Shown one piece after another: positions 19,722 through 36,387 of a stretch of 36,387 nt of DNA. Numbering within the stretch: the first letter of the stretch is position 1; every line of letters starts with the position of its first letter. The DNA comes from Candidatus Sericytochromatia bacterium (lineage in GTDB: Bacteria > Cyanobacteriota > Sericytochromatia > UBA7694): assembly GCA_018780035.1 (NCBI GenBank), contig JADMKE010000014.1, positions 137,271 to 173,657 of the forward strand, read 5' to 3'. Under the pieces are notes generated by a model, which did not search any database, had not been told where the DNA came from, and saw only the letters and a program-made list of their open reading frames with translations. The translations under genes and the position numbers were made by a program.

Positions 19722-19804
19722 GATAGACGCTTTTTTGAGAATTTGGCAAAAAAGCAGGTCCTGGGGACTTGAAATTTATTTCAATTGTGACCTACAATAC
19801 AAAT

Positions 19805-20302
19805 ATGCATACACTTAAACACAGCTATTTAGAAGATCCTTCTTTTGAGACTGCTTTAAAGACCTATGCACCTCAGGCCACCCCTGCGCCTGAGTGGGTC
19901 CCTTTTGCCTGGGAAGGGGAAAAACCAACTGTCGCTGAGCTGGAAAGCCACCTGACAGAATTGGAAGGGCGAATCGACAGAGGGCAGGCCCTGATTCAGG
20001 CCTACCGTGAAGCCCACCAAGGCACCGACAATCTGCGACTGATGCGCCAATTGCAAAAGCTGCGTCGGGAAAAGGCCCACGTTCAGCAACAATTGGACGT
20101 CTTGGCGTCCCAACGCCCCCTCGATTTTCAGGCTGAATTGCGCAAACGTGCCCAAGCGGCCTACCAGGCACTGCTTGAAATGAATCTGCAGCGCGAATAC
20201 GATACCCCGCGCTATTTAGAACAGGAAGAAATTGTCAGACGCTATATGCGGGAGCACGAGGAGGGCTTCGCAGAACTCTGCGATTTCGCCGGAACGCTTT
20301 AG
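19805..20302 (+). CDS. Hypothetical coiled-coil protein.
   Basis: ATG is at 19805; the track's TTG at 19769 gives a longer form. The central region is Glu/Arg/Gln/Leu-rich and predicted helical. No known motif was found. Confidence 0.45.
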   Translation: MHTLKHSYLEDPSFETALKTYAPQATPAPEWVPFAWEGEKPTVAELESHLTELEGRIDRGQALIQAYREAHQGTDNLRLMRQLQKLRREKAHVQQQLDVLASQRPLDFQAELRKRAQAAYQALLEMNLQREYDTPRYLEQEEIVRRYMREHEEGFAELCDFAGTL

Positions 20303-20338
20303 CGCGCTATACTGGGAGAAAAATTCCCTGGAGCCGCC

Positions 20339-21112
20339 ATGTTGATTCGGTCTATTCCCTGTCTCCAAGACAATTACGCCTATTTATTGCGCTGTGAACA
20401 AACCGGCCAAACGGCTGTAATTGACCCCTCTGAGGCCTTACCCGTGCTCAAAGCCCTGCAAAAAGAGGGCTTGTCTTTACATGCCATTTTAAATACCCAC
20501 CACCACGGCGACCACACCGGCGGCAACAGTGAATTGCTGCGCCATTTTCCTGGCATTCCGGTCTATGGCCATGGCTCCGACCAAGGGCGAATCGCCGGAC
20601 AAACCCATTTTCTCGCCGCCGGTGAGGTCTTTGAACTGGGCAAGCTCTCGATTCAGGCCTTACACAATCCAGGTCACACCCACGGGGCCGTTTCTTACGC
20701 CGTGCATGACGCCCTGTTTACGGGAGACACACTCTTTGGCGCAGGCTGCGGCCGGGTCTTTGAAGGCACCCCAGCCCAAATGTATCACTCCCTGAACCAG
20801 GTGATTGGCGCTTGTCCAGAAAATACCCGGCTCTTTTTTGGCCACGAATACACGCGCAAAAATCTGGAATTCGCCTTACACGTCGAGCCAGAAAACCCGG
20901 CCATCGCCGACCGTTTAGCAGCCATTACAGCCCTGCTTCAAAGCGGAAATTTTTCGACGCCTTCCGAACTGGGTTTGGAGCGTTTGACCAATCCCTTTTT
21001 GCGCTGTGAAGTCCCGGCGGTCCAAGCCTTTGTCAAGCGCATCGAAGCCGAAAACCCACTCACACCTGTAGAGGTCTTTCGGGTTTTGCGGGCCCAAAAA
21101 GATCGGTTTTAG
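20339..21112 (+). CDS. gloB: Hydroxyacylglutathione hydrolase (glyoxalase II).
   Basis: Metallo-beta-lactamase motifs are present: 'LNTHHHGDHTGGN', 'ALHNPGHTHGA' and 'FTGDTLF'. The C-terminal HAGH domain is present. GGAG lies 7 nt upstream. Confidence 0.9.
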   Translation: MLIRSIPCLQDNYAYLLRCEQTGQTAVIDPSEALPVLKALQKEGLSLHAILNTHHHGDHTGGNSELLRHFPGIPVYGHGSDQGRIAGQTHFLAAGEVFELGKLSIQALHNPGHTHGAVSYAVHDALFTGDTLFGAGCGRVFEGTPAQMYHSLNQVIGACPENTRLFFGHEYTRKNLEFALHVEPENPAIADRLAAITALLQSGNFSTPSELGLERLTNPFLRCEVPAVQAFVKRIEAENPLTPVEVFRVLRAQKDRF

Positions 21113-21121
21113 GCTTAAGTC

Positions 21122-23539
21122 ATGCCAGAAAGTACAGATCACGATTGGTTGGAAGCCCAAACAGCCTGGGAAGCCGGCCTGTTCGACAAAGCCCGGCTCA
21201 AGCTCGAAAAGAGACTCAATCGCCATCCCCAAGATACATCCACACTTGCCTTATTGGGTCAGGTTGCTCAGGCCCAGCACCACTGGAAAGAGGCCCGTCG
21301 CCACTTTGAACAGGCCCACGAACTGGCCCCCGCAAACCCAGAATATACCCACTTATTGGCCCAGTGGTTTGTCGCTCGCCAAGGTTTCCCAGAGGCCGAA
21401 GCCCTTTATGCCGCTTTTTTGACCGCTTACCCAGCCCATCCTTCCCTGCGGGTCGAATACGCCGCGCTATTGGGGGCCAGAGGAGCCCTCAACGAGGCAG
21501 AAACCCAACTCAAAACCTGTTTGGCCGACTTTCCCGATCAGCTCGATGCCTGGCTGCTCTACGGCAATCTGGCAGCGGCCATGGGCCAATTCAAGACCGC
21601 TGAAAACGCCTACCAAGAAATTATCTCCCGCCAGCCAAAATTGCCCGAGGTCTATCGCCGCAGGGGTCAACTCGCGCTGATGCAAGGCCTCCCAGAACAG
21701 GCCTTGCCCCAGTTTGAACAGGCCCTGGAACTGGATCGTGACGATGCCGAAAGCTGGAGCAATCTCGGCGCCGTCAAGCTGATGATGGCCCAAACCCCAG
21801 CGGAACGGGGTGAGGCGATCCGGGCCTGCATGCAGGGCCTGCTGCGCGACAACCGCAACCCGCAGATTCTCGCCAATATTGGCCTGGGCTTTTTCCAAAT
21901 GGAACTTTATCCCGAAACCCTCTTTTATCTTGATCAGGCGCGCAGCCTTGATCCGCAATTGCAGATCGGGGATTTTGAATTGGGGATGTCTCTGCTCAAA
22001 ATCGGCAAAGCCGGTCACGCTTTGGAATATTTGCAAAACTGCCAGACCGCCGCAGAAGAACCCCCCGAAAATCTGGCCCAGGTGGCCGCTTGGCTGGGGT
22101 ATATCCGGGCCCAACAGGGGGATCTGGTTCAGGCCCAAAAAGACTATTTGGCCCTGGAGACCTGCGATCCCCACCAAGGCGGAAAATGGCTAGCGGCATC
22201 GCTCTTGCCGCCGGTGGCGGCCTCAGAATCGGCCTGGCAAGACTATGCCTTGCATTACCGCCGGGCCCTGGCCAAATTGCAGCAGGCCCCAGCATTTAAA
22301 CTCAAACAGATGCCCGTGGACATGCCTGGCCTGTTTTGGGCCTACCAGAGCGACAATGTCAGACCCGAGCAAGAAATCCAAGCCCAGCTCTGGCAACGAG
22401 CCCTACAAGACAGGCTGTGCAGCACAAAACACAAGACACGTCCCCAAGCCCCCTGGCGGATTGGGCTGGTCTCACGCTATTTTCACAATCACTCGGTAAT
22501 GGGGGTTTTCGCCCGCCTGATTCAGGCCTTGAGCCAAGAACCCAGCTTTGAAGTCGAATTGTTTATGCTCGGCCCCAGTGGCGAAGATGCCACCACCGCC
22601 TTTTTGAGCCGCCTGTCGCTCAAGCGGCATTTCCTCGGTGGCCAAGACTTAGATCAGATCAACAAAGCGATTCTCAGCCGCGAGTTGGATGTCTTGCTCT
22701 ACCCGGAGTTGGGCATGGACCCGTTGACCTTTGCCCTGGCCTGTTCGCGCCTGGCCCCTTACCAAGCCGTCTTATCTGGGCACCCGGTCACAACAGGCCT
22801 CAACACCATCGACAGCTATCTTTCCAGCCGCTGGCTTGAACCGGCTGAAAATGCCCAGGCCGCTTATAGCGAAAAGTTAATCTGTCTGGACGAATTACTG
22901 CCGGATTTTCCCTTTCCCACTCTGCCCAGCCAAAACAAAAGCCGCTCTGAACTGGGCCTGAAGCAGAAACGCGTTTATCTCTGCCCGATGATGTTATTTA
23001 AGCTGCACCCGGCCATGGATGCCGTCTTTGCTGAAATTTTGGCCCGCGACCGCGAAGGGGAGATTGTCTTTTTTCAATACCCACCTTATTCGTTGCACGA
23101 CGGCCTGGAAAAAGCCCTGATCAAACGCTGGGCCCGCAGCATTCCCCAGGCCAAACGCCTGCGTTTTTTGCCCTGGGCCTCGCGCGAAGACCTGCTGCGC
23201 CTGATTCAACACGCCGATGTGGTGCTCGACAGTTTTCCCTTTGGCGGCGGCAATACCAGCTATTTGACCCTGGCAATGGGCACACCGCTCGTGACCCTGG
23301 CTGCACCTTATTTACGCGGGCGCAGCAGCACAGGCATGTATCTGCGCATGGGTCTGCCTGAACTGCCCGCCCAGAGCCCCACTGAATATGTCGAAAAGGC
23401 CCTGAAATGGGCCAACGAACCACAGGCCCGTGCAGAGGTCAAAGCCCTGATCGAAGCCCAACGCGGCGTGCTCTTTGACAACCCAGCCGGGTCGCAGGCT
23501 TTGATTAATTTTTTGAAGAACTCCCTGGCAAGTCTTTAA
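21122..23539 (+). CDS. TPR-repeat protein fused to an O-GlcNAc-transferase-type (GT41, SPINDLY-like) glycosyltransferase domain.
   Basis: The N-terminal 400 aa hold multiple TPR repeats. The C-terminal half contains 'RIGLVSRYFHNHSVMGVF...LDVLLYPELGMDPLTFALACSRLAPYQAVLSGHPVTTGL...KLHPAMDAVFAEIL', characteristic of the GT41 catalytic domain. It lies 9 bp after gloB. Confidence 0.85.
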   Translation: MPESTDHDWLEAQTAWEAGLFDKARLKLEKRLNRHPQDTSTLALLGQVAQAQHHWKEARRHFEQAHELAPANPEYTHLLAQWFVARQGFPEAEALYAAFLTAYPAHPSLRVEYAALLGARGALNEAETQLKTCLADFPDQLDAWLLYGNLAAAMGQFKTAENAYQEIISRQPKLPEVYRRRGQLALMQGLPEQALPQFEQALELDRDDAESWSNLGAVKLMMAQTPAERGEAIRACMQGLLRDNRNPQILANIGLGFFQMELYPETLFYLDQARSLDPQLQIGDFELGMSLLKIGKAGHALEYLQNCQTAAEEPPENLAQVAAWLGYIRAQQGDLVQAQKDYLALETCDPHQGGKWLAASLLPPVAASESAWQDYALHYRRALAKLQQAPAFKLKQMPVDMPGLFWAYQSDNVRPEQEIQAQLWQRALQDRLCSTKHKTRPQAPWRIGLVSRYFHNHSVMGVFARLIQALSQEPSFEVELFMLGPSGEDATTAFLSRLSLKRHFLGGQDLDQINKAILSRELDVLLYPELGMDPLTFALACSRLAPYQAVLSGHPVTTGLNTIDSYLSSRWLEPAENAQAAYSEKLICLDELLPDFPFPTLPSQNKSRSELGLKQKRVYLCPMMLFKLHPAMDAVFAEILARDREGEIVFFQYPPYSLHDGLEKALIKRWARSIPQAKRLRFLPWASREDLLRLIQHADVVLDSFPFGGGNTSYLTLAMGTPLVTLAAPYLRGRSSTGMYLRMGLPELPAQSPTEYVEKALKWANEPQARAEVKALIEAQRGVLFDNPAGSQALINFLKNSLASL

Positions 23540-24629
23540 AACTTAAAAGTTTCAAACTGAGCTTGGTGCCCTGCCCAACTTTGCTCTGAATCTCAACGCT
23601 GGAGCGCAACAAACGGGCAATTTCGTCGCAGATACGCAAATCCATGCCTTCCAGGAGATCGCTTTCTCCACGCAGCTCTTCCAGGGCTTCGGCCACAAAA
23701 CCAGGACCATTGTCTTCTTGGCTCAACACAGACTCACGGCCTTCTTGGTACAGGCGCAAGGAAAGGGTACTGGCTGGTGGCAAATGCTGTAAGGCAAAGT
23801 GCATCCAACCATGAGACAATTCCCGCAGCAATTGGGGTTCGGCCAATACTTCATGGTCTGGATTGCAGCGCAGGCGGAGTTCAATTTGCCGAGCAGAGCA
23901 GGGCTCCATATACTGGGCCAGGATTTCGTCCAAAATGTCCCTGACATTGACCTTTTGCAGTGCGGGAAAGGGCATGAAGCGGTAATGGGCCTGGCGCAGA
24001 AGCTGATGCAAATGTTTTTGTCCCCGCTTTGCGGCAAAGAGAGCCTCTCTGAGGTATTTTTCAGGCAGACTTGGAATATCTGGCCAGGATTTTTGCAGAT
24101 TTTCCAGCCGCAAATCCATTTGCCCCAGTCCTTCGTTGAGTTCGCAAGAGAGCACCTGAAACATCTCATCTTTGGCTTGGTTAAAGCGTTTGAGTTCGTT
24201 TTCCCGGCTGTGTAAAATCAGGCTATTGCGAACCCGTGCCAAAAATTCCAGTTTATCCACAGGTTTGCGCACAAAATCGACAGCGCCCAATCCCAAGGCC
24301 CGTGACAGGTCATAACTGCGGGTCATGATGCCTGTACAAATGATTACAGGCAAATCCGCAAGCAGGGCATTTTGTTTTAATTGTTGCAGCAGGGTTAAGC
24401 CGTTCATATGGGGCATTTCCCAATCGCTGATCAGCAGATCCAACGGCTCTTGACGGGCAATTTCCAGGGCCAGCAGACCATGATTGGCCCTTAAAATTTC
24501 GAAAGGCCAGCCACTGGCGCGCAAAAATCCCTGCAGGGTTTCCAATGCACTGAGTTCGTCATCGACCAATAAAATTCGGGCCGGGGAACGGGGCCCAAAA
24601 CAGGCTGGCAAAGAATAAGACTCCGTCAT
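23505..24629 (-). CDS. Response-regulator receiver domain fused to a histidine-kinase-like region (dimerisation plus ATPase domains) in which the phospho-acceptor His is replaced by Cys. It is a probable pseudokinase or atypical signalling protein.
   Basis: The receiver reads 'ILLVDDELSALETLQGFL...DLLISDWEMPHMNGLTLL'. The H-box-like region reads 'FQVLSCELNEGL' against the consensus 'SHELRTPL'. The ATPase G1 box 'DNGPGF' and the G2-like 'GQGTKLSL' are present, but the N-box Asn is not evident. ATG 24629 has GGGAG upstream; the track start is TTG 24641. Confidence 0.8.
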   Translation of the reverse strand: MTESYSLPACFGPRSPARILLVDDELSALETLQGFLRASGWPFEILRANHGLLALEIARQEPLDLLISDWEMPHMNGLTLLQQLKQNALLADLPVIICTGIMTRSYDLSRALGLGAVDFVRKPVDKLEFLARVRNSLILHSRENELKRFNQAKDEMFQVLSCELNEGLGQMDLRLENLQKSWPDIPSLPEKYLREALFAAKRGQKHLHQLLRQAHYRFMPFPALQKVNVRDILDEILAQYMEPCSARQIELRLRCNPDHEVLAEPQLLRELSHGWMHFALQHLPPASTLSLRLYQEGRESVLSQEDNGPGFVAEALEELRGESDLLEGMDLRICDEIARLLRSSVEIQSKVGQGTKLSLKLLSFKDLPGSSSKN

Positions 24630-24675
24630 TGACGCTCCCAAATCTATCCAACAGCGTTTAATCTATCCATTTTTA

Positions 24676-26946
24676 TTATAATCGGCTGTTGGGTCTTTCT
24701 GTCAGAGGATCTTCGCTTAAGCCTGCCAGCAAGCGGCTGTAACTTTCTTGGTCAAAGGCGTTGATGGCTTGATGCAGGCCTGAGAGCCAGGTTTGGGCTT
24801 GGGGCGACAGGGTTTGATTGCTGCTAGCCAAAACAGCCTCGATCCGACTAAATTGGTAGACCTGCAACCCCCTCAGTTCTGTCAGCAGAGGGGCCAGTTC
24901 TTTGCTGAGCCCTGCGCGATCGTTCTGTTCTTCTGATCGGCTGACACCAGCTCCAGCAGGCACACGCTCTGTGATTTGCTGCCGGGCCTGGGGCAATTCC
25001 AACTTGACCTCGGTTCCCTTTTCCGCTTGGCTGTTTAAGTAGATCTTGCCACCCAAAGCCTCGGTTGCCAGCTTGCAAAAGGCCAATCCCAACCCGGTCG
25101 AAGATAAAAACAGTTCAGATTCGTGGTGGCCCGTTTGAAATTTTTCAAACAGCCGCTGTTTTTGTTGCTCTGAAATCCCGTTGCCCTGATCCCGGATCGT
25201 GAGGGTGACTTCTGCCTGCGCAAATTGCCCTGCCAACTCCACGGTGGAGCCCGGTGGGGCGTATTTGATCGCATTGCTGAGCAAATTGACCAAGACCCGG
25301 CGCAGCAAGAGCACATCACAGTTGAGCAAAATCCCTTCCGGCAAGTCGGTTTTTAAGAAAATATTGCGGCGTTCGGCATAAAAGCGCAGTTCTTGCAGCG
25401 CTTCTTGCACCAAAGCCAGCAGTTCATACTCTTCCCATTTGAGCTGCAGTGCAGTATTGCGGGCCAGGCTCAGATCGAGCAGGTTTTGAATCAGCAACTG
25501 CATCTGCCGCCCCGCTTCACGAATCTGTTGCCAAGCACCGAGTTGACTGTTGTCTTGTGCCAAAATCACCCCCAGCGGGGTTTTGAGATCGTGAATGATC
25601 ATCTCGGTCAGAGTTTCACGGGCTTCGCTCAGGGCCTCGACACGGGCCTTGGCTTGATTCAGGTCTTCTGTGCGCGCCAGCACTTTGGCTTCGAGTTCCA
25701 AGTTGAGGCTTTGCAATTCCTGGGTCAGAGACTCACGCATCACAAAGGCCTGAGAAAATCGCCGGGCCAGCAAAATCGCCTGACAAAAGCTAAAGATCAC
25801 ATAGCCCCAAAGCACCAAATCTTGGCTGCGAATCAACTCCATATTGTGCAGGATATCGTGTACAGCCAGGATCAAATAAGCGGCAAAACCACCCCAAAAG
25901 AAATAGGCTCCTTCCCGTTTATGCCTCACCGCCTGATAAGTGACCCAAACGGCATAAAGCAATTGGGCCAAATGCAATCCCCAGAAAGGTAAAAGGCTTA
26001 AACTGTGTAGGGGTGAGGGCAAGAGCAAAGTTGCCAAAAGCAACCCCCAAACAGGCCAGGTCAAAAAACGAATGATCTTGGCTGTGGTTTCATCGGGAAA
26101 GAGGGCCTGCAGATACTTAAACATTAAAAAGGTCGCCCCGTAAAGCACCAAGCGGGTCAGGCGCAAACTCAGTTCAAAGCTATCCAACCCCAGCAAACTC
26201 TCAAAGAGATGGGTCATCATCAAATCATAATAGAGCGAGGCGCACAAAATAGTCAGACCAAACCAGAGCGCCAAGCGGTTTCGCGGCAATATGCCCCAAA
26301 GCAGCAGGTGGTAAAGCGCCAAAAAGAAGACAAAGCCCAAAGCCAGGGCAATACCCGTCTGTTCTTGGTTTTCTGCCAATGAAATCTCACTGGCCAGGCC
26401 CAGCCAAAGGGGTTCGATCAGACCCGAACGGTGAAAGGTCGAATTGGATACATCACAATGCAAATGGCCCTTGTCCTGACGCAAAACAAAGGGCAGAAAG
26501 CGATTGCGGCGAGAAGCCACCAGTTCTCCACGCCAATGCGTACCGCTGTGAGCCACCAATTGTCCCTCAAAATAACAGGCGTAGGCACTGCCTTGAAAAC
26601 GGGTGCGCAAACGCAGGACCTGACCCACATCCGCTGGGGCAAAATTCACTTGCAGGGCATAACGGGCCTGGCCCAATTGTGTGCGCCAAAGCGGCAATTT
26701 TTCCAGTTTTTCCCAGCGCCCAGGCACACGAATGGCTACCTGTTGGGTACTTTGCCCAAACCGAAAGAGCCATTCCCCATTGAGTTTAAGCGGGGCTTGT
26801 TGCCTCAGCGACCATGTGCGCAGATCCAATACCCCGGCTTGGGCTTGGGGGGGCAAAACCGGAACAGCCAAAGCCCAACCAAACAGAGGGCCAGATAGCC
26901 AAAAACAAATTAAATAAACAAATATCACCCAAAAGGGCTTTTGCAT
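24676..26946 (-). CDS. Sensor histidine kinase with a 7TMR-DISM periplasmic sensor domain and 7TM module, plus a roughly 120-aa C-terminal extension of unknown function.
   Basis: The N-terminus has a signal/transmembrane segment. 'LDLRTWSLRQQAPLKLNGEWLFRFGQ' is the 7TMR-DISMED2 signature. Seven hydrophobic helices follow. A coiled coil leads to the H-box 'IIHDLKTPL', then an N-box and G-boxes 'IRDQGNGIS' and 'GLGLAFCKLATEALGGKI'. ATG 26946 has GGGGAA 8 nt upstream. Confidence 0.9.
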   Translation of the reverse strand: MQKPFWVIFVYLICFWLSGPLFGWALAVPVLPPQAQAGVLDLRTWSLRQQAPLKLNGEWLFRFGQSTQQVAIRVPGRWEKLEKLPLWRTQLGQARYALQVNFAPADVGQVLRLRTRFQGSAYACYFEGQLVAHSGTHWRGELVASRRNRFLPFVLRQDKGHLHCDVSNSTFHRSGLIEPLWLGLASEISLAENQEQTGIALALGFVFFLALYHLLLWGILPRNRLALWFGLTILCASLYYDLMMTHLFESLLGLDSFELSLRLTRLVLYGATFLMFKYLQALFPDETTAKIIRFLTWPVWGLLLATLLLPSPLHSLSLLPFWGLHLAQLLYAVWVTYQAVRHKREGAYFFWGGFAAYLILAVHDILHNMELIRSQDLVLWGYVIFSFCQAILLARRFSQAFVMRESLTQELQSLNLELEAKVLARTEDLNQAKARVEALSEARETLTEMIIHDLKTPLGVILAQDNSQLGAWQQIREAGRQMQLLIQNLLDLSLARNTALQLKWEEYELLALVQEALQELRFYAERRNIFLKTDLPEGILLNCDVLLLRRVLVNLLSNAIKYAPPGSTVELAGQFAQAEVTLTIRDQGNGISEQQKQRLFEKFQTGHHESELFLSSTGLGLAFCKLATEALGGKIYLNSQAEKGTEVKLELPQARQQITERVPAGAGVSRSEEQNDRAGLSKELAPLLTELRGLQVYQFSRIEAVLASSNQTLSPQAQTWLSGLHQAINAFDQESYSRLLAGLSEDPLTERPNSRL

Positions 26947-27077
26947 CGTCATTTCCCCACTCACAGTCCCTGGTGCAGCAAGCGCTCTTGCAGGTGTCTA
27001 GAGCATTTCAGTTTAAACCACCCAGGGCGATTTTGAATACCCTGGGCGGGCTCTGGCATTGTTTCAGAGATAGCCCA

Positions 27078-30000
27078 TCAAGGAGAAATTCTGCGAACAC
27101 GGTGGTTAAGCCGGTCGGCCACATAGACCTGACCTGTACTATCTACGCTCACACCGGTCGGATTGTTCAGCTGAGCCAAACCTGCAATGCTGTTGTCTCC
27201 GGCCAGAGCAGCGGCCCCCGTTCCAGCAAGGGTATAAATAAAATTGGCAGTCATGGCTTGGCCATAATAATTCCCTGATGTGATCGGGATAAACCGAATC
27301 TTGTGATTGCCAGTATCGGCAATAAACACCCCTGTGGCATTGGCAAAGACCCCGCGTGGGCTGCTCAGACGGGCTGAGGTCGCGCTACCGCCATCCCCTG
27401 TTGCACCGGCATTGCCATCACCAGCGATGACATACAGGGTATCTGCGGCCATGACTTGGCCAAAATAGTTACCCGCGGTGTCGGGCCTGAAGAAGATGCG
27501 GTGGCTGCCTGCATCGGCAATGTACACATGCCCGCCGTTGGTGGCGTTGGCCACCCGATGGATACCACTCGGACTGTTCAAAGCGCTGCCACCAAAGCCA
27601 CCGCCTGCAACAAAATAGATATTGCTGCCAGCGACCGTTCTGCCAAAGCGGGTGGCGGGCCCGGTCAGGAGATTGGAGAAATAGGCCACGTTATTGCCCG
27701 TATCGGCAATCAAGGTGCCATTGCCCTGATCTGCAACCCCTTCGGGACTGGCCATATTGGCCGCGAAGCGGGCAGTACCATCGGTCGCAGCACCATTGGT
27801 GCCACTGCCATTGACAGTATAAATACTGCCGGCAGTCATGGCGATATTGTAAAAAGTGGCAGTGGTATTGCTGAGGGTGCGTACCCGCTGATTGGCGGTA
27901 TCTGCAAAGGTCAGCAAAATATTGCCAATCAGGGCAATCCCGTGGGGATCGTTGACCTGAGCGGAGGTGCCCGCACCATTATCACCGGCAAATGTGCCGG
28001 TGCCATTGCCGGCCAGGGTATAGATATTGCCTGCGGTCATGCCAGCCACCCCAAAAAAGTCACCATTGCTGGCAGGCACAAAGCGAATGCGGTGATTGCT
28101 GCTATCGGCAATGGCCACATGATTGGAGGCATTGATAGAGACGCCCCAGGGGGCATTTAATTGTGCGCTTGCAGCAGCGCCATTGTCACCACTGAAGCCC
28201 TGGGTCGAACCGGCAAAGGTGGTGATTCTGGGCATGACTGTAAAATTGCTTCCGGCACTGGTTTGGGTCCCCACCTGAACAGTGGTGGCATAAGGCGCGG
28301 CATTGGATGTCAGAGAAGGTACTGTAACAGTGAGAGCCGTGGCTGTCGCCCCTGTGACTGTGGCATTTGTGCCGCCAAAACTGACGGTATTGCTGCCCAG
28401 TGTGGTGTGAAAGCCTGAACCATTGATCGTGATACTGGCTCCCGCCACATCACTGCTGGTACCGGCAGAAGTGAAACCGGTAATCGCAGGTGTGACGGCA
28501 TAATTATTCGTGCCGGCATTGGTTTGCCCTGCCACCGTGACCGTGACATTCTGGCTGCCAAAGATTCCGGCAGGCACCGTCACATTGAGGCTGGTCACTG
28601 AAGCGGTATTGACCGTGGCTGTGGTTGTACCGAAACGCACGGTATTGTTGCCAGGGGTCGTGTCGAAGCCGGTGCCGGTGATGGTCAGGGCACTGCCAAT
28701 CGTGCCATTGCTGGCACTCAGGTTGGTAATTGTGGGCCCTGCGGCACTCACTGTGTAGTTATTGGTGCCTGCATTGGTCTGTGCGCCGACCTGAACCGTC
28801 ACATTCTGAACGCCGACATTGTTGGGCACCGTGACCGTCAATTGGGTTGTGGTGGCAGCCGTGACTGTGGCAGCAGTGCCACCAAAGCTCACGGTATTGC
28901 TGCCGAGTGTGGTATGAAAACCACTGCCGTTAATAGTCATGCTACTGCCAACATTGCCTGCGATGGGGGTGAGATTGGTAATCGCTGGCGTAACCGCATA
29001 ATTATTCGTGCCGACATTGGTTTGCCCTGCCACCGTGACCGTGACATTCTGGCTGCCAAAGATTCCGGCAGGCACCGTCACGTTAAGGCTGGTGGCTGAA
29101 GCGGTATTGACTGTGGCCGTGGTCGTGCCAAAACGCACGGTGTTGTTGCCAGGGGTGGCATCAAAGCCCGTGCCGGTGATTGTCAGGGTACTGCCAATCG
29201 CGCCATTGCTGGCACTCAGGTTGGTAATCGTGGGGGTCACATTAAAATTATCTGCGGCGGTATTGGCGCTGGTCTGGTTGCCGACCTGCACAGAAATATC
29301 CTGGGCCCCGGTGATGCCCACTGGCACCGTGACCGTGAGTTGGGTATTGCTGGCTGCTGTAACTGTGGCAATGGTGGTGCCAAAGCGCACGGTATTGCCT
29401 CCGGTTGTGGCGTGAAAATTTGTGCCGTTGAGGGTAACGCTGCTGCCAATCGGGCCGGCACTCGCACCTAAACTGGTAATACTGGGGGTCGCTGGGGTGG
29501 CTGTTACTGTCACAGCATGGGTTCCACCTTCTGTGCTCGTCACCGGATTGGTGGCCACAGCATAGGTATACGTGGTTCCGGGGGTACCGGCACTGGAAGC
29601 CAAAAGCCGCAAGCCAGAACCAGGAGTGGATTTGACAAAAGCAGTCACGCCATTGCCTGCTGCCGTAACCACGGGTGTGGCACTGTCGGTCAATTGCAAA
29701 CGGGCTTGGTCTGCCCCCACTAAGCCCGTCACCGTGGCATTGACAGTGCTGCCGTTGAGGCGGTAATTGGCTGGAGTCAAAGCCCCTGGATTCTGGCTCA
29801 AAAGATCATTGGCCAATTGGGTCAGGTTGATCAGGGTCGGATGGGTGGTATAGGTATAGTTGGGATAGGTGCCTGCCACACCGGTGATCTGATTGATCAG
29901 GGTATTTAAATCCGCCAGCACGATTGCTTTGGCACGGGTGAGATTGGTGGCCATCAGGCTTTTCATCACCTTGGCCGCAGGAGTGCTCAAAAAACTGACC

Positions 30001-30476
30001 TCCACATTGGCATTGTTGATTCCGGGATGGCTGATCACACTGGCCAGTTCGGCCTGGGGAATGAGCGCCACACCGTCATTGACACTGAGCTCCAGCAATA
30101 ACAATTGATCGGGGATCAGATTGTTAAAGGTCAGGCTCAGATTGCCGCCAACAGGGTAATTGACTTGGCCCTGGGCATCAGAGCCATTGGGCCGGGTAAC
30201 AAGATTAAAGCTGTCGGTGACTAAGGCTTTGACTTTGGTGGCAGAGGCAAAGTCCAGGGCCTGGGTTTTAAACGCTGGCAAAGCAGGCAAATCCAGGTGT
30301 AAGGTCAGTTGATTCCCGTGCCATTCCATCCGAGCAGGCCTGAGTAAAACAGGTGAAACTACGGGAGATTGCTGTAAAGGAGAAGCAGGATTTGGCATAG
30401 ATGTCAGCTCAGGTGAACTTTGGCAGGCCGCCAACAGAGAGAGAAGCACAAAGAGCGAAAGAGATGAATAGCGCAT
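27078..30476 (-). CDS. Giant surface lipoprotein (1132 aa) with a lipobox signal, at least 7 IPT/TIG domains and a C-terminal six-bladed NHL beta-propeller.
   Basis: The signal is 'MRYSSLSLFVLLSLLAAC'. TIG units recur as 'TITNLSASNG.IGS.LTITGTGFD.TPGNNTVRFG...LNVTVPAGIFGSQNVTV'. NHL blades read 'AIADSSNHRIRFV', 'FADTANQRVRTL', 'VYIADAGSHRIFF', 'VFIADTGNHKIRFI' and 'VYVADRLNHRVRRI'. The ATG shares one nucleotide with the upstream gene's stop (TAATG). Confidence 0.9.
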   Translation of the reverse strand: MRYSSLSLFVLLSLLAACQSSPELTSMPNPASPLQQSPVVSPVLLRPARMEWHGNQLTLHLDLPALPAFKTQALDFASATKVKALVTDSFNLVTRPNGSDAQGQVNYPVGGNLSLTFNNLIPDQLLLLELSVNDGVALIPQAELASVISHPGINNANVEVSFLSTPAAKVMKSLMATNLTRAKAIVLADLNTLINQITGVAGTYPNYTYTTHPTLINLTQLANDLLSQNPGALTPANYRLNGSTVNATVTGLVGADQARLQLTDSATPVVTAAGNGVTAFVKSTPGSGLRLLASSAGTPGTTYTYAVATNPVTSTEGGTHAVTVTATPATPSITSLGASAGPIGSSVTLNGTNFHATTGGNTVRFGTTIATVTAASNTQLTVTVPVGITGAQDISVQVGNQTSANTAADNFNVTPTITNLSASNGAIGSTLTITGTGFDATPGNNTVRFGTTTATVNTASATSLNVTVPAGIFGSQNVTVTVAGQTNVGTNNYAVTPAITNLTPIAGNVGSSMTINGSGFHTTLGSNTVSFGGTAATVTAATTTQLTVTVPNNVGVQNVTVQVGAQTNAGTNNYTVSAAGPTITNLSASNGTIGSALTITGTGFDTTPGNNTVRFGTTTATVNTASVTSLNVTVPAGIFGSQNVTVTVAGQTNAGTNNYAVTPAITGFTSAGTSSDVAGASITINGSGFHTTLGSNTVSFGGTNATVTGATATALTVTVPSLTSNAAPYATTVQVGTQTSAGSNFTVMPRITTFAGSTQGFSGDNGAAASAQLNAPWGVSINASNHVAIADSSNHRIRFVPASNGDFFGVAGMTAGNIYTLAGNGTGTFAGDNGAGTSAQVNDPHGIALIGNILLTFADTANQRVRTLSNTTATFYNIAMTAGSIYTVNGSGTNGAATDGTARFAANMASPEGVADQGNGTLIADTGNNVAYFSNLLTGPATRFGRTVAGSNIYFVAGGGFGGSALNSPSGIHRVANATNGGHVYIADAGSHRIFFRPDTAGNYFGQVMAADTLYVIAGDGNAGATGDGGSATSARLSSPRGVFANATGVFIADTGNHKIRFIPITSGNYYGQAMTANFIYTLAGTGAAALAGDNSIAGLAQLNNPTGVSVDSTGQVYVADRLNHRVRRISP
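28244..29240. repeat. Two near-identical tandem copies of a 498-bp unit (166 aa, two TIG domains) inside the 1132-aa gene.
   Basis: The same sequence appears at about 28499-28616 and about 28997-29114, with only about 6 mismatches over the roughly 118 nt compared by eye. Reverse-strand pseudo-ORFs 28510-28758 and 29008-29415 translate almost identically. Confidence 0.8.
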
Positions 30477-32809
30477 TAGTTAAAGCCTCCATTGGCGTTG
30501 AGGGTGATTGAAGGCAAAATCGCCGCCACAGCGTCACTGCTGAGCACATCCACGATCACGGTGATGTTGATATCCCCCGGCAAATTGAGAGCGGTGGGCA
30601 CAGGCACGATCAACTGGTTGCCATTTACAGCAGCAGCCGGGACTTCAATCGTCCCAAAGCGCACGCGGTTATTGCCCGCTAAAAGGGTGTCAAAACCCGT
30701 TCCTGTCAGGGTCAGGGAGCTTCCTCTGACGAGACGAGCCTTGCCAGAGACAATGCCATGAGGTGTGGCCAGAGCCGTAATCTGGGGTTTCACTTTAAAG
30801 GACAAAGCATTGCTGTTGGCACCATTGACCTTGACAGAGACATTCTGGGCCCCAAAGATGCCGGCGGGTACCGTCACGGTGAGACTGTTGGCTGTCGCGG
30901 CGGTCACTGTGGCCGAGACATTGCCAAAATTCACCAGATTTTCAGCTGCAACTGCACTGAAATTGGAACCAGTCAACGTGATCGTGCTGCCAATCGGAGC
31001 TATAGTAGAGGCAAGGGTCGAAAGGGTGGGTTGATTGAGGGCCGAAGCCCCGCCGCCTCCGCTCCCCCCGCCGCTGCTTCCCCCACCGGAAGACTGACGC
31101 CAAGTAGACGTCGTGGCTTTGCCTGTCACAGTATCATTGCCGCGCTTGACATCCACACGGAATTCATAGCGGCTATCAGGACTGAGGCCACTTGCAAGAT
31201 ATTTGAGTTTTTCCCCGGCTTGGCCATTGATTTTGGCAAGCAGGCGATTGCTTTCAAAAATTTCATAAGTGGCTGCGGCAGCAATCCCCGTAAATTCAAG
31301 TTGAATTTGGGTATATTCATTGTTTGGGAATGGATAAGCCTTGATCTGCAGACCAGTAGCCGAAGCGCTGGGGCTCGGAGAAACCGAAGGCGTGATCTGG
31401 GGAGAGGGAGTCGGAGAAGCGGTCGGCAATGCTGTCGGTCTGGCACTAGGAGATGCTGAGGGCTGAAGGCTGGGCGCGGGTTGGGGAGTGGGAACGGTTT
31501 CCGGTAACTGGGCCTGCAAAAGTGTCAATTCACAAGGGCCCAGCGGGGGAAATGGATTGGAAAGGATGACGGTTCCTTGTGAATTGTTCAGGTTCACAAT
31601 CTCTTTTCCGGTGTTATTGAGCTGTTTATTCTGAATATTTTCACGGACCGAAGAGATGGCAATGGCCGTTTCTGCGTTTGATATTTTTGTAATTTTTGAA
31701 TCAAAAATATTTATATTTTTATTTAAATCCAACAAGATAGACTGACTATCTCCCAAAATAATTTGATTAAGCGTCTGATTGATTTTGGTAATTTCATTGC
31801 TGGTGAGACTCACCATATCCATCACACTTCCGAGAGAGGTGTCCTGGTCATTACATTGTGGCAGCGAGTTGCTCAGATTGATGATTGAGCCCAAATTTTC
31901 AGCGACTGGCTTGAGAGGGCTGGGCTTTGGCGAAGAAAATAGCACAGAGGTGGTATTTGGGGAGGGGACTTGCTGAATCTGAAAACCCTCAGAGGGGGCA
32001 GGTGCTAAAGCCGCAATTAAGTTGGCTTGTTTGAGCTGTCGCTGAATTTCCTGGCCCATGAGTCCATTGAGATAGCGAATCTGAATCAAAGATTCCAAGC
32101 GCGCCACCAGATTGGGCATTGAGCTTAGAAAGGTATTTTGAATATTCTCTAAGCTTTCTTTTTCCAATCCCACGCGACCATCTTGCTGGGAGCCGCGTAT
32201 AATATCTGCCAAGACTGTTGAGCGGGGCGAAACTTCCACAGTCAATGAGACAGGCTTATTTGGCACATCTACGAGGGCACGGGCAATTAATTGACTTTGT
32301 TGATTGAGGGCCAAGACCTCATATCTGAACCCCCCTGGTAGGGCATTGATCTGAAAATGGCCCGTGGCATCTGTTTGCGTGCTGGCCAATTCTTGACCAT
32401 CGGGTAAATAGATTTTGACAGTTTGATAAGCCAGTCCCTCCAAAACAGCTTTATTGCCTTGAGGCATCAATAAACGCCCTTTCAGAGCCAAGGGCGATGC
32501 TTGCTTGAGCTGAGCGAGAACGGCTTGTTTCAGCTGGGCTTGTGCTCGCGCTTGCAATGCTGGTTCGACAGTTACCACTGAGGGGAGTTCTATTTCTTCA
32601 GCTGTCTGGAAATAGCTGTTTAAGGCCTGTCTTAAGCGTTCCCTTTCACTGTTTTTTTCACTCTGGCTTAAAGGAGGGAGAACCGCAGGTGTGCTTAAAA
32701 GCAAATTGCTGCCCAAAGGCCCAGTCTCTTGGCAGCCCAGTAAAAGGCTGAAACAGAGACAGGTAAAGGTCAGTGATTTTTTAAATCGAAAATGAGATGG
32801 ACGTATCAT
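30476..32809 (-). CDS. Surface lipoprotein (about 777 aa). Domains in order: CarboxypepD_reg-like beta-sandwich, low-complexity N/I/K-rich region, Pro/Ser/Thr/Ala linker, Fn3-like domain, Gly/Ser linker and two C-terminal IPT/TIG domains.
   Basis: ATG 32809 (MIRPSHFRFKKSLTFTCLCFSLLLGC, lipobox) has GAGGAG 10 nt upstream; the track start is TTG 32827. CarboxypepD_reg-like motif is 'KIYLPDGQELASTQTDATGHFQINALPGGFRYEVLA'. The Fn3-like segment is 'YEIFESNRLLAKINGQAGEKLKYLASGLSPDSRYEFRVDV'. The TIG motif is 'TIAPIGSTITLTGSNFSAVAAENLVNFGNVSATVTAATANSLTVTVPAGIFGAQNVSV'. It is a paralogue of the N-terminal region of the 1157-aa protein. Confidence 0.85.
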   Translation of the reverse strand: MIRPSHFRFKKSLTFTCLCFSLLLGCQETGPLGSNLLLSTPAVLPPLSQSEKNSERERLRQALNSYFQTAEEIELPSVVTVEPALQARAQAQLKQAVLAQLKQASPLALKGRLLMPQGNKAVLEGLAYQTVKIYLPDGQELASTQTDATGHFQINALPGGFRYEVLALNQQSQLIARALVDVPNKPVSLTVEVSPRSTVLADIIRGSQQDGRVGLEKESLENIQNTFLSSMPNLVARLESLIQIRYLNGLMGQEIQRQLKQANLIAALAPAPSEGFQIQQVPSPNTTSVLFSSPKPSPLKPVAENLGSIINLSNSLPQCNDQDTSLGSVMDMVSLTSNEITKINQTLNQIILGDSQSILLDLNKNINIFDSKITKISNAETAIAISSVRENIQNKQLNNTGKEIVNLNNSQGTVILSNPFPPLGPCELTLLQAQLPETVPTPQPAPSLQPSASPSARPTALPTASPTPSPQITPSVSPSPSASATGLQIKAYPFPNNEYTQIQLEFTGIAAAATYEIFESNRLLAKINGQAGEKLKYLASGLSPDSRYEFRVDVKRGNDTVTGKATTSTWRQSSGGGSSGGGSGGGGASALNQPTLSTLASTIAPIGSTITLTGSNFSAVAAENLVNFGNVSATVTAATANSLTVTVPAGIFGAQNVSVKVNGANSNALSFKVKPQITALATPHGIVSGKARLVRGSSLTLTGTGFDTLLAGNNRVRFGTIEVPAAAVNGNQLIVPVPTALNLPGDINITVIVDVLSSDAVAAILPSITLNANGGFN

Positions 32810-32832
32810 ATAGCTGGGGCTCCTCAAAATAT

Positions 32833-35800
32833 TTACCGCAATGTGACAGTGCGAGGCTTAGAAATTGCACCGTCTTTGGTTTTTACCCATAAATAGAGCT
32901 TGGTCGGTCTTTTGGGCAATTTTTCACTGACAGAATCTTTGATGAGTTTGGCAGACATTTCAACCAAACCGTTATATTTGTATAAAGACAGGGATTTCGC
33001 AACCGAGCTGAGCTCAAGGTTTATAACCAATTTCTCTCCCTTGGGCCCATTTTTACCTGGTTCATAGGGAGAAATAAAGATTTGATTGTCTTTAATACTC
33101 TCTGAAACATGGTACGTCTTTAAAGTGAATAAAGTATCAAAAGAGATCTGTTTATTGTCGATCACCTTATCCAGAATGCTGGCAATCTCAACAGAGGTGT
33201 TGATCACTGTCCCTGAATATTCAAGTTGAACAGGGTGAGTGCCATACAACCCCATTGGTACCTTCACATCTATTTCCGAAGCAGATATGACACTTGGGGT
33301 TACCTTTTCAGCAGAGCCTACTTTAACAGAGGTATTACCAAGCGCCTGCCCCTTGATTCTGACTCTGTTGTCCCCGTATTCATTTTCTTGAGAAGTAAAG
33401 ATCGGGCTGTCGGTATTCAAGTTTAATTCAAACGTGAAGGGATTGGGCAGTTCGAATTTGGCTGGGTCTTTTTCTGGATTGGTTTTATTGGCCACGACAA
33501 ATTTGGTTGAATATTTGGTTGGGTTAATATAATCCTGATACGGACAGATAATTTTTTTCGCTTGTGCATCTTCTTGGCAAGCCCGATAAAAACTGACGCC
33601 ATTTTGATTGGCAATTTGAGCATAAAAGGACACATAGGGCGAATCAAAAGGGGGCAAATTAGCGTAATTGCCAATTTCGATATGGCTTGGTTTGGGCTCA
33701 ATATTTGAGATGGTCGGAACCAGAAAATCAAGTTTTACCCCATTGGAAACCAAATTCCCAAATTCAACTTTGACTTCTTGATTACCAGCCAACTTAGGCG
33801 CTCCTGCCTCTATGAGGGTTTCTTGCGGAGTTAAGGTCACTTTGGTCACATCAACATCTTGCCCGCCAATCTTGAGCTTGACTTGATCCGAGTTCAGGGC
33901 AGAAGTCGAAATCTTTAAGCGTTCTCCCTGTCTCACCTGGGTGATGTTTTGGCCGGCTGCATTTTGGATTTTATTGAGCGTGATTTCTTTGGTTGTTGCT
34001 CCCAGGGTGATCGGTTTGGCCTCTGAGATGATATTGTGATTGGTGACAGTCACCAATGTCTTTCCCTCTATGCCCTGAGGAACAATGACCGTCAAAGCCA
34101 CTTCGCGCGCACCCACTTGATTCGTACATCTGGCGCAATAAGGGCTGGGGATATTTACAAAGTTGAATTTAGAAGCAATTTCTTTAACAGACTCAACAAC
34201 AGCTATTTTATCGCCAAATTTGACAATATTCTGATCTTTTCTAGGATCAAAAACTCCTTGTATTTCTATTTTTTGAAATTCAGCTGCATTTTCAGGTAAA
34301 ATACCTGAAATTTTGGGGGTAATGAACAAAGGTACTTTATGAACATAGGTATTGGCGTATCCCAGATCAGACAAGAATAACTCGAGCGTTTGCTCACCCA
34401 ATAGCTGTTTGGGAAAGTTATCGATGGTCAGCAATGTGCGCTCTTGGGAGATCGATCTGCGAATAACATTGACCTTCACTATCTCTTTTTTATCGGTCAC
34501 CAAGTGGTTTACGACAAAGCTCTTATCTGAAAGATTGATTGCCAATTCCAATGTAGTGCCATTTTGAACCTGTTTGGAAAGAATCTCGGTGGTGGGTTCA
34601 ACAAAAAGAAAGCGATGTTTGGTCTTTAAATTATCCAGATAGAGCTTATAAACCCCGATATATTCTTTGGGCAGTGTTAATTTTAACTCACGGTCTGAAA
34701 CAAACTCTGGGATAAGCTCTTTTTGGAATGCTTGGGTTTGCAAATGATTCGTGAGAATAATTTTGTGATTTTTACCAAAGAGGCCATTGAGGGTGATTGT
34801 CCCACCTCTTTTGGTGTAAGTGGAATTTGTCTCCCCCATAATACCTGCCAGGGGCGTAAATTGGACGGCATTGGACGATTGCTGATTGACCATCAGCTTG
34901 ATATCGAGTGGATTGACAGAGCTGAGCATGGGAACTTCGACTTGCAGAGAAATAATCTGTTTGCCTTTGTCATCCAACTCAAAAGACATTCCGATATTTT
35001 TGGCCAAGACGTCTCCAAACATCACTTTGTTTTCAGCAAGGTTCTTAGAAAAATCCGTTGTTTTGAGGGTGACCGTATCCCCCACAGCAGCGGTGGTTTT
35101 ATCCAGGGTAATATTTGCCAGGGGAGGCAGGGGAGTCGACATCACAATGGGGAGAGGTGGAGTGCTTGTACTGCAGTTTCTGTTTCCCACCCGACCAATA
35201 ATCCCTGTTAAATCTGATTTTAATTCCGTTGTAACTGCTTCACGCAGATCCATGGCAGTGTAAAGGGTTGAAATTTGGGTGTTTTTGTTCAGGGACGTTT
35301 GGATGGTCAACAAAGGAGAAATCAACAGATGGGGAGAGTTGATATTGTTATTCAGGCTTTCAATCGATTGAATCATTTCGGGCCCCACACCAGACAGTCC
35401 ATTTAATTGGGTTAGCAATTTAATTTGCTTTGGGGACCCCCCGTTTATCAGACCTATTTGTTGAACTTTAAAGCCCGTTTGCATTTGCCCAGAGCGCTGA
35501 GAACAGGCCTGAGAACGCTTGAATACAGATTGGGTTTGAAAATCGTTCAGTTTTGTTTGCACACCCGCTTGTATTTCGTCTTGCACCTCGCTGACCAGAT
35601 TGAGCAATGACAGTCCGGACACAAGTCGGAAGAAATGCTCTGGATTTTGTGTCAGATATTTCTCAATTTGTGCCACAGAAATCTGTTCCAGGCCTGAACG
35701 CCCATCGCGCGAAGCCAGCCAAACAGCCTCAGCAACGGCTGTCGTTTCCAAAGTGAGATTTTGTTCAATACTATCAGAGGGCGGGGTGGCAGGCAGATCG

Positions 35801-36306
35801 AGCAAAGCACTGGCCAGAGAACGGCCTGTTTCAGTGCTGGCTACCAATTCTATCCGCATACCCGCAGGAACGCCTTGCAATGTGTATTGACCTTCGCGAT
35901 TGGTTTGGGCCACACCCAGAGTACTTCCATCCGGAGCATAAACGGTAAGCGGGATTCCTGAGACGGCTGTGTCTGGGGACAGTTCAAGCCGCCCCGTTAA
36001 GGTCACCTGCCTGGCTGTTTTACGCAGTTGATTGACTTCTTGGGAGGTAAATTGCGCCAATGCTGCATGATTATTTCCAAAACTCAGGTCTGGAGCTTGG
36101 GGATCTGCCAAAAATTGGGCTATTTTAGCTTCCAGAGCAACCCGCTCCCTTTGGGCTTCTGCTTTTGTCAATTTGGCAATCACAGGCTGGGTCAAAAAAG
36201 TGCTTGTGTTTGGATTGAGGGGGGCACTGGGTTGGCAGGCGGACAGATTCCAAACCGTTGCCAAACAGATCAGCCCAAGGAGATGGGTTTGGCGAAAGTG
36301 AAACAA
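32833..36306 (-). CDS. Giant surface lipoprotein (1157 aa as called). It has an N-terminal CarboxypepD_reg-like domain followed by many Ig-like / TIG-like beta-sandwich repeats. It is the first gene of the three-lipoprotein operon.
   Basis: The signal and lipobox read 'LLGLICLATVWNLSAC'. 'LTVYAPDGSTLGVAQTNREGQYTLQGVPAGMRIELVAS' is CarboxypepD_reg-like. The N-terminal 250 aa are collinear with the 783-aa paralogue. The track start is TTG 36306 with no SD. The frame is open upstream to the window end, so the true start is uncertain. The 3' end lies 5 bp from the next gene. Confidence 0.75.
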   Translation of the reverse strand: MFHFRQTHLLGLICLATVWNLSACQPSAPLNPNTSTFLTQPVIAKLTKAEAQRERVALEAKIAQFLADPQAPDLSFGNNHAALAQFTSQEVNQLRKTARQVTLTGRLELSPDTAVSGIPLTVYAPDGSTLGVAQTNREGQYTLQGVPAGMRIELVASTETGRSLASALLDLPATPPSDSIEQNLTLETTAVAEAVWLASRDGRSGLEQISVAQIEKYLTQNPEHFFRLVSGLSLLNLVSEVQDEIQAGVQTKLNDFQTQSVFKRSQACSQRSGQMQTGFKVQQIGLINGGSPKQIKLLTQLNGLSGVGPEMIQSIESLNNNINSPHLLISPLLTIQTSLNKNTQISTLYTAMDLREAVTTELKSDLTGIIGRVGNRNCSTSTPPLPIVMSTPLPPLANITLDKTTAAVGDTVTLKTTDFSKNLAENKVMFGDVLAKNIGMSFELDDKGKQIISLQVEVPMLSSVNPLDIKLMVNQQSSNAVQFTPLAGIMGETNSTYTKRGGTITLNGLFGKNHKIILTNHLQTQAFQKELIPEFVSDRELKLTLPKEYIGVYKLYLDNLKTKHRFLFVEPTTEILSKQVQNGTTLELAINLSDKSFVVNHLVTDKKEIVKVNVIRRSISQERTLLTIDNFPKQLLGEQTLELFLSDLGYANTYVHKVPLFITPKISGILPENAAEFQKIEIQGVFDPRKDQNIVKFGDKIAVVESVKEIASKFNFVNIPSPYCARCTNQVGAREVALTVIVPQGIEGKTLVTVTNHNIISEAKPITLGATTKEITLNKIQNAAGQNITQVRQGERLKISTSALNSDQVKLKIGGQDVDVTKVTLTPQETLIEAGAPKLAGNQEVKVEFGNLVSNGVKLDFLVPTISNIEPKPSHIEIGNYANLPPFDSPYVSFYAQIANQNGVSFYRACQEDAQAKKIICPYQDYINPTKYSTKFVVANKTNPEKDPAKFELPNPFTFELNLNTDSPIFTSQENEYGDNRVRIKGQALGNTSVKVGSAEKVTPSVISASEIDVKVPMGLYGTHPVQLEYSGTVINTSVEIASILDKVIDNKQISFDTLFTLKTYHVSESIKDNQIFISPYEPGKNGPKGEKLVINLELSSVAKSLSLYKYNGLVEMSAKLIKDSVSEKLPKRPTKLYLWVKTKDGAISKPRTVTLR

Positions 36307-36387
36307 CGGTGATCTTTGCTTAAGTTCAAAACTAACTGTAGTTTCGGAGATTTTTGCATGAGCAAAGAGAAAGGGCGTATTCTGAAA

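Follow-up and report, generated by a model that had tools for sequence, protein, structure and literature searches.

A TIG domain that is probably an old copy of its neighbour but one, in a chimeric lipoprotein gene of a Sericytochromatia bacterium

Introduction

In a 36,387-nucleotide (nt) stretch of DNA from Candidatus Sericytochromatia bacterium (contig JADMKE010000014.1, positions 137,271 to 173,657; "the window" below is this whole stretch, and coordinates are its own), the gene of an 1132-amino-acid (aa) lipoprotein carries five IPT/TIG domains in a row with a period of 498 nt. The question that this locus raises is whether the array was duplicated recently, so that the encoded surface protein might still be gaining and losing domains. 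A preliminary description of the window had taken this view and proposed a recent tandem duplication of a 498-bp unit, with about 95% identity between the copies. We favor a different history, to which we give a probability of about 0.62: the second TIG domain (T2) would be a one-domain copy, of about 266 nt, of the fourth (T4), roughly as old as the split from a sister species and altered by one later short conversion patch, in a TIG-array gene of chimeric make-up.

Results

Extent of the likeness between the repeats

The gene lies on the reverse strand. Its parts and the two tracts of high identity are as follows.

27078..30476, (-): gene of the 1132-aa lipoprotein; open reading frame (ORF) with signal peptide and lipobox, an N-terminal module of ~310 aa, five IPT/TIG domains and an NHL beta-propeller
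29487..30476, (-): signal peptide with lipobox (aa 1-18) and N-terminal module (aa 19-330), from the ORF and Pfam
29235..29486, (-): TIG domain T1, aa 331-414, from Pfam; nearest relative in the gene T3 (65% nt identity, synonymous divergence 0.94)
28989..29234, (-): TIG domain T2, aa 415-496; probable derived copy of T4
28737..28988, (-): TIG domain T3, aa 497-580 including an AAG linker, from Pfam; closest to T5 and T1
28491..28736, (-): TIG domain T4, aa 581-662; orthologue of the first TIG domain in the sister species' gene
28236..28490, (-): TIG domain T5, aa 663-747; 94% aa identity to T5' of the sister species' protein P0002
27081..28235, (-): NHL six-bladed beta-propeller region, aa 748-1132, from Pfam, PDB and Foldseek
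28969..29234, (-): high-identity tract, T2 copy and first 7 codons of T3; 90% to 28471-28736
28471..28736, (-): high-identity tract, T4 copy and first 7 codons of T5; 90% to 28969-29234, with abrupt edges

Tandem Repeats Finder returned the period of 498 nt (1.9 copies, 79% matches, score 1236), and the two units described earlier, T5+T4 and T3+T2, hold two TIG domains each; to this extent the preliminary description stands. The two halves of the units are not both alike, however, and 95% identity over 498 bp was not recovered: aligned globally with gaps, the two units agree at 394/528 positions (75%), and self-blastn of the window gives 76.6% over 607 nt. High identity is limited to the ungapped pair of 266-nt tracts, at 90% (blastn 89.85%, E 1e-101; 90.7% over the 82 domain codons), and per 30-nt window it falls from 83-100% inside the tract to 20-60% at both edges. 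This T2/T4 tract is the sole long repeat detected by self-blastn in the whole window. Such abrupt edges are the trace to be expected of a conversion tract or of a single-domain copy.

Synonymous (dS) and non-synonymous (dN) divergence was computed by the Nei-Gojobori method on the codon alignment.

T2/T4: aa identity 93.9%, nt identity 90.7%, dS 0.335, dN 0.028
T1/T3: aa identity 59%, nt identity 65%, dS 0.94, dN 0.35
T3/T5: aa identity 67%, nt identity 60%, dS saturated, dN 0.315

All TIG pairs except T2/T4 have a dS of at least 0.94 or are saturated. That the units resemble each other in DNA far more than the other TIG repeats do is thus true of T2/T4, whose synonymous divergence is well below that of the rest, and untrue of the T3/T5 half, which is saturated at synonymous sites. 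T3 and T5 have 56 identical residues, encoded by the same codon in 20/56, and their identical 21-aa motif TINGSGFHTTLGSNTVSFGGT (28875-28937 and 28368-28430) differs at 14/63 nt. Because synonymous codons and nucleotides differ despite identical residues, the likeness of T3 and T5 is protein-level conservation only. A conversion patch between them was considered and rejected, the 14 differing nt of the motif all lying in codons for the same residue. The constraint on this motif is strong and specific to T3 and T5; the other three TIG domains differ there.

An alternative phasing, T1-T2 against T3-T4, fails likewise, with a dS of 0.94 for T1/T3 versus 0.335 for T2/T4. Judged by these divergences, the halves of the 498-nt unit have different histories, and under neither phasing could a single 498-nt duplication explain the pattern. 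The dS of T2/T4 is far below that of the other pairs, and a later, separate and non-reciprocal event involving a single domain is therefore needed. Abrupt tract edges, together with a dS discordant with that of the neighboring domains, are the features by which gene conversion between paralogous repeats is recognized, and both were found here.

Age of the T2/T4 copy

The age of the copy can be gauged against the gene of the sister species, whose product P0002 is encoded at three loci: L001 (JGI), L002 (Logan) and L003, which is the GTDB representative 'Candidatus Blackallbacteria bacterium mt_P12'. The calibration compares the window with L001, and comprises only three orthologous T4 sequences over a 246-nt tract. 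The dS values between window and L001 are:

NHL part: dS 0.162
T5: dS 0.175
Response regulator: dS 0.216
Histidine kinase: dS 0.233
T4: dS 0.336

The paralogous T2/T4 value (0.335) is about that of the T4 orthologues (0.336) and lies above those of the flanks (0.16-0.23). T4 and its counterpart T4' in L001 are 97.6% identical in aa and 91.9% in nt. Of 246 nt, 23 separate T2 from the window's own T4, 26 from that of L001 and 28 from that of L003; between any two of the three T4 orthologues there are 20-28 differences, and the relations among T2, window T4, L001 T4' and L003 T4' are star-like, at 88.6-91.9% identity. Since its dS equals the orthologue T4 value and exceeds those of the flanks, the T2/T4 copy would not be recent and would date to about the split from the sister species. 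The recent 498-bp duplication proposed earlier is contradicted both in extent, as only one domain is concerned, and in age. By the same counts, T2 has evidently not been kept identical to T4 since copying.

One might suppose that T2 and T4 are alike in nucleotides because the sequence itself is under selection, for codon usage or for an element in the RNA or DNA, and not because they share a recent ancestor. In protein, the T4-type domain is highly conserved, with 87% aa identity in the relative P0035 although the NHL part there is at ~59%. However, synonymous sites of T4 vary freely between orthologues (dS 0.34-0.49), and the P0035 copy is only 77-80% identical in nt, so that we regard such selection as extremely improbable.

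A later, short conversion patch

Within the tract, one segment stands apart.

28517..28583, (-): 67-nt run identical to 29015-29081; core of an apparently younger conversion patch

Over domain nt 1-141, T2 has 17, 16 and 15 differences from the T4 of the window, L001 and L003, and over nt 142-239 it has 3, 7 and 10. Set out as a concerted-evolution comparison of paralogues with orthologues, this is 17 versus 14-17 in the first part and 3 versus 6-10 in the second. T2 equals T4 at nine consecutive polymorphic sites (GENECONV-like permutation, P=0.003 uncorrected). Six sites join T2 with the window T4 and L001 with L003, the alternative groupings being supported by 4 and 1. A donor for the cluster of T4-specific changes at domain nt 105-141 was looked for in the window, and none was found. 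Probably, one later short conversion of ~70-100 nt around the 67-nt run re-homogenized part of the tract. Conversion between T2 and T4 would then be episodic at most, and an ongoing state is not supported: what is left of the idea of continuing conversion is the modest evidence for this one patch, the first 141 nt being without homogenization.

In RecA-dependent recombination, an exact run of 67 nt within 266 nt at 90% can allow rare unequal exchange. By such an exchange the gene would lose or gain exactly 166 codons, in frame, and no sign of its occurrence was seen. The repeat, which had been presented as a substrate for in-frame expansion and contraction, might by virtue of the exact run still undergo a 498-nt deletion or duplication, but would be a poor substrate for it.

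These observations bear directly on the view that a recent tandem duplication of the two-TIG unit, or conversion still under way, maintains an actively length-variable surface protein. In its favor are the 498-nt period itself, the fact that the pairs one period apart (T1/T3, T2/T4, T3/T5) are among the closest relatives within the gene, the remaining 67-nt exact run and the one short patch that looks younger. Nevertheless, we consider this view quite improbable: the T3/T5 half is synonymously saturated, the dS of T2/T4 is that of orthologues between species, T2 is over its first 141 nt no nearer to its own T4 than to the sister T4, and no length variant is present among 5.8 billion proteins.

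The junction at T4 and the origin of the 5' part

The 1132-aa protein is 100% identical to an NCBI protein of a 'Candidatus Sericytochromatia bacterium' metagenome-assembled genome (MAG), and the same 5.8 billion proteins contain no other close full-length relative. The next match, P0002 (1556 aa), has 97% identity from residue 576 onward only. An exact-protein look-up in the contig collection gave no match, and in scans of genome and metagenome collections the matches were confined to the sister species (L003) and to remote TIG or NHL proteins, no genome of the same species being among them. In DNA, L001, L002 and L003 are collinear with window 18294-28744 at 91-92% nt identity, up to the following point.

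28744..28745, (.): point at the 5' edge of T4 beyond which the sister species' DNA is no longer homologous; blastn and base-level alignment

The break precedes the first T4 codon by a few bases. In blastn, window 23465-28744 is 91-92% identical to the three loci, and past 28744 there are paralogous matches only; upstream of the break, the similarity to sister DNA is that of T2 to T4' alone, and no homology in DNA links the N-terminal module to L001 or L003. The sister gene is composed of an unrelated N-terminus of ~1000 aa, a Gly-rich linker, T4', T5' and NHL, with two TIG domains only. The order linker, TIG, TIG, NHL, with two TIG domains each, is common to P0002 and the more remote homologues P0009 and P0035, and because the relatives share it, T4-T5-NHL would be the ancestral tail and T2 the derived copy.

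The alignments thus mark the window gene as a chimera, in which another N-terminal module and T1-T3 are joined to a conserved TIG-TIG-NHL tail. The five TIG domains here, against two in the relatives, are on this evidence the result of a whole N-terminal replacement at the start of T4, and not of gain or loss of units. That an ancestral gene of the 1556-aa type was simply interrupted by an insertion was ruled out: the 783-aa gene upstream in the window, a distant paralogue, has no more than 31-45% identity with the sister 1556-aa gene's N-terminal part, so it is not the severed 5' part.

The 5' part has relatives of its own. Window aa 1-580 resemble Sericytochromatia lipoproteins of ~780-860 aa at 43-54%, and the N-terminal module is 43-54% identical to proteins of this size with the same N-terminus and 5-6 TIG domains. 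In this family (P0004, P0006, P0034; L012), the N-terminal module and TIG array align with aa 1-750 of the window protein at 43-54%; its members differ in that they end after the TIG array, whereas the window protein runs on into the NHL propeller, the orthologues of which sit behind a different N-terminus. T4-type TIG domains in the ~785-aa family have 70-77% aa identity. Family members occur in tandem operons, and a stretch of 1025 nt is 83% identical between neighboring paralogues of L012. It thus appears to be a trait of the family that TIG-coding sequences are occasionally exchanged. L012 (640-12363) holds three tandem genes with the same N-terminal module and 5-6 TIG domains, and a fourth of 1413 aa in which this N-terminus is followed by a single TIG domain and by another kind of propeller. 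The 1413-aa gene also has repeats, at ~1080-nt spacing and 72-74% nt identity, that are rich in 'DGITWT'-type motifs.

It has to be asked whether T2 arrived together with the foreign 5' module (N-terminus and T1-T3) from a third, about equally distant lineage with a T4-type TIG domain at that place, which would make the likeness of T2 and T4 allelic or orthologous. The star-like distances would fit, homology to the sister species is lacking throughout the region upstream of T4, and T4-type TIG domains are also present in the ~785-aa family. We nonetheless hold this origin to be rather unlikely. For the rest of the 5' module, no known sequence exceeds 54% identity, and T1 and T3 are only ~60% identical to any TIG domain; because the 5' module, T1 and T3 are without close matches, the donor would have to be very distant everywhere except in T2. 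Moreover, T2 shares with the T4 of its own genome the six sites at which both sister genomes differ. The copying of T4 to T2 remains the explanation that we prefer.

An assembly artefact was also weighed, that is, a mis-join of the MAG at the TIG repeats or a collapsed copy, in which case the five-TIG chimera would not be real. The genome is metagenome-assembled, and homology breaks at a domain boundary inside a repeat-bearing gene. However, a mis-join through T2/T4 would leave one hybrid domain and not two copies set apart by T3, the shared tract does not include the junction at 28744, copies with 10% divergence and a longest exact run of 67 nt are resolvable by ordinary short reads, and the ORF is intact with its domain boundaries preserved. 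Collapse of copies ~10% divergent is unlikely, although a further copy that was nearly identical might have been collapsed, and for the artefact in general we see very little probability.

That the inter-species homology break coincides with the start of T4 hints at modular swapping of N-termini. In a wider form, which is speculative and in our opinion doubtful, the conserved T4-type TIG domain would serve as a recombination joint by which N-terminal modules (anchor, unknown domains, extra TIG domains) are swapped onto a constant TIG-TIG-NHL tail; the locus would be cassette-like and hypervariable, and repeated exchange at the joint would have left behind both the T2 copy and the raised dS of the T4 orthologues.

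Other differences from the sister species were recorded. The non-homologous block measures at least 7.6 kb (window 28744-36387, compared with L001 1-13005 and L003 1-8007), with its other edge past the window. It includes the 5' part of the 1132-aa gene, the 783-aa gene and an 1157-aa gene; the sister species has a different 849-aa gene and the ~1000-aa N-terminus at that place. The window is also without a ~1.1-kb segment of L001 and L003 in which a Rieske/FMN_red gene lies (window 23465-23515). In L001, this segment is flanked by an imperfect direct repeat (40/51 nt; 18270-18320 and 19437-19487), of which the window has a single hybrid copy, and the ~1.1-kb difference looks like a deletion or insertion by short-repeat recombination. 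At L010 (6001-9412), from the same JGI sample as L001, the paralogue P0035 is called as a 976-aa gene and a separate 149-aa NHL fragment, a split that may represent a frameshift or a pseudogene.

The predicted protein

The 1132-aa protein starts with MRYSSLSLFVLLSLLAAC, a signal peptide closing in the lipobox LLAAC (aa 14-18, with L-A-A-C at aa 15-18), which was read by eye without a dedicated predictor. Cys18 is nearly invariant in an alignment of 32 homologues. By its signal peptide and its lipobox Cys, the product is classed as a predicted bacterial lipoprotein. Pfam assigns IPT/TIG (PF01833) to five stretches (E 2.6e-45, 152.7 bits versus a cut-off of 20.9) and NHL (PF01436) to the C-terminal part (E 2.8e-21, 74.9 bits versus a cut-off of 20). 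The NHL part matches by sequence NHL propellers in PDB (Pizza, TRIM71 and teneurin NHL), and Foldseek likewise finds NHL propellers at a target TM score of 0.73-0.87, which supports a six-bladed NHL propeller; it also matches plexin IPT arrays and Bacteroides TIG+NHL surface lipoproteins. The AF2 model has a mean predicted local distance difference test score (pLDDT) of 81, with five beta-sandwich domains at pLDDT ~90; its predicted TM score (pTM) of 0.48 makes the inter-domain geometry and the overall shape unreliable. The N-terminal module (aa 19-330) has no Pfam or NCBIfam match; its model (29487-30422) consists of a beta-sandwich, a helical segment and a second beta-sandwich, at pLDDT 80-95. 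NCBIfam gave a generic repeat-domain match only, a promoter and terminator scan detected nothing particular to the repeat, and a literature search on the clade yielded nothing bearing on the 1132-aa gene.

Neighboring genes

30476..32827, (-): 783-aa gene, upstream; two terminal TIG domains, U1 (30788-31030) and U2 (30479-30787)

Three large lipoprotein-like genes are arranged head to tail (36306..27078, (-)). The 783-aa gene ends, and the 1132-aa gene begins, within the sequence TAATG at window 30476, in which stop and start codon overlap; the same stop/start pattern is seen at L012. This suggests that the three genes may form one operon with translational coupling. Directly downstream follow a 7TMR-DISM histidine kinase (24676-26964) and a response-regulator/HATPase protein (23505-24641), the genes of which also adjoin the NHL lipoprotein gene in the sister species.

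Discussion

Taken together, these results would fit the following history. The 1132-aa lipoprotein carries five diverged TIG domains between a lipid-anchored N-terminal module and a C-terminal NHL propeller, and its T4-T5-NHL tail, ~92% identical in nt to that of the sister species, would be ancestral. At about the split of the lineages, T2 would have been derived from T4 by a non-reciprocal event, either gene conversion of an existing TIG domain or a single-domain copy, and a later short conversion around the 67-nt run would probably have re-homogenized part of the tract. A different N-terminal module with T1-T3 would have taken the place of the ~1000-aa N-terminus of the relatives, with the junction at the start of T4. 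The TIG domains might act as a spacer holding the NHL propeller off the membrane, so that their number would set its reach. The propeller is likely the ligand-binding head, and the Foldseek matches suggest that the whole is a ligand-binding surface protein.

Several points weigh against this history. The T4 orthologue dS (0.34-0.49) exceeds that of the flanks (T5, NHL, kinase and regulator, 0.16-0.23), and a locally faster T4 rate would make T2/T4 seem older than it is; T4, which adjoins the breakpoint, either evolves faster or was patched from elsewhere. Dating and mosaic rest on few sites (three T4 orthologues, 246 nt), and the permutation P=0.003 becomes ~0.02 after correction for the six pairs. 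The direction of the architectural change is drawn from three relatives only, no second genome of the same species was found in which copy number could be compared, and the spacer function of the TIG domains is one that we infer.

In itself, the repeat reflects ordinary domain-array evolution and has little importance beyond annotation. For annotation, its anatomy is corrected to one domain at 90% and not a 498-nt unit at 95%, and as the copy would be old, there is on this evidence no ground for marking the gene as one of actively varying length or as a probable site of assembly collapse. Of more general interest is that two genomes ~92% identical in their shared DNA differ by a whole 5' replacement exactly at a TIG boundary, an example of how TIG-array lipoproteins evolve by modules in a bacterium that is related to the cyanobacteria, but non-photosynthetic and uncultured.

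Comparison with known systems

In Periscope Proteins (SasG, Rib, Sgo_0707), adjacent domains are highly identical, with 82-100% protein identity between Sgo_0707 neighbors, and high DNA identity has been proposed to drive the variation of repeat number between strains; the usual identity of neighbors in multidomain proteins is below 50% (PMC8201768). The window protein is similar in its surface-anchored array of Ig-like (E-set) domains between an anchor and a putative binding domain, and its repeated DNA could in principle permit in-frame gain or loss of domains. In contrast to Periscope Proteins, its adjacent pairs (T1/T2, T2/T3, T3/T4, T4/T5) have 47-60% aa identity, close to the usual value below 50%, and its only similar pair, T2/T4, is non-adjacent and ~10% diverged. 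Nor was variation between strains seen, in collections that yielded no second genome of the species. By these identities, the 1132-aa gene does not encode a near-identical adjacent tandem array of the Periscope kind.

The same lipoprotein layout, IPT/TIG followed by a six-bladed NHL propeller, is found in Bacteroides BT_3476 and BACOVA_00264 (PDB 3tc9, 4hw6, 3hrp), described as 'auxiliary nutrient binding proteins', which match the window model in Foldseek at E 6e-15 to 6e-13. They differ in being of ~400-424 residues versus 1132, at 12-16% identity, and the matches cover part of the model. No sign of a polysaccharide-utilization locus was seen in the window.

Intragenic gene conversion and concerted evolution occur among the domain repeats of bacterial surface proteins, for example in the Big-domain arrays of Leptospira Lig proteins. 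Unlike in such concerted evolution, conversion between T2 and T4 would be old and at most episodic, and most of the tract is without within-genome homogenization relative to the orthologues. The window gene nonetheless has in common with these systems a tract of about one domain, abrupt edges, discordant dS and a mosaic sub-tract.

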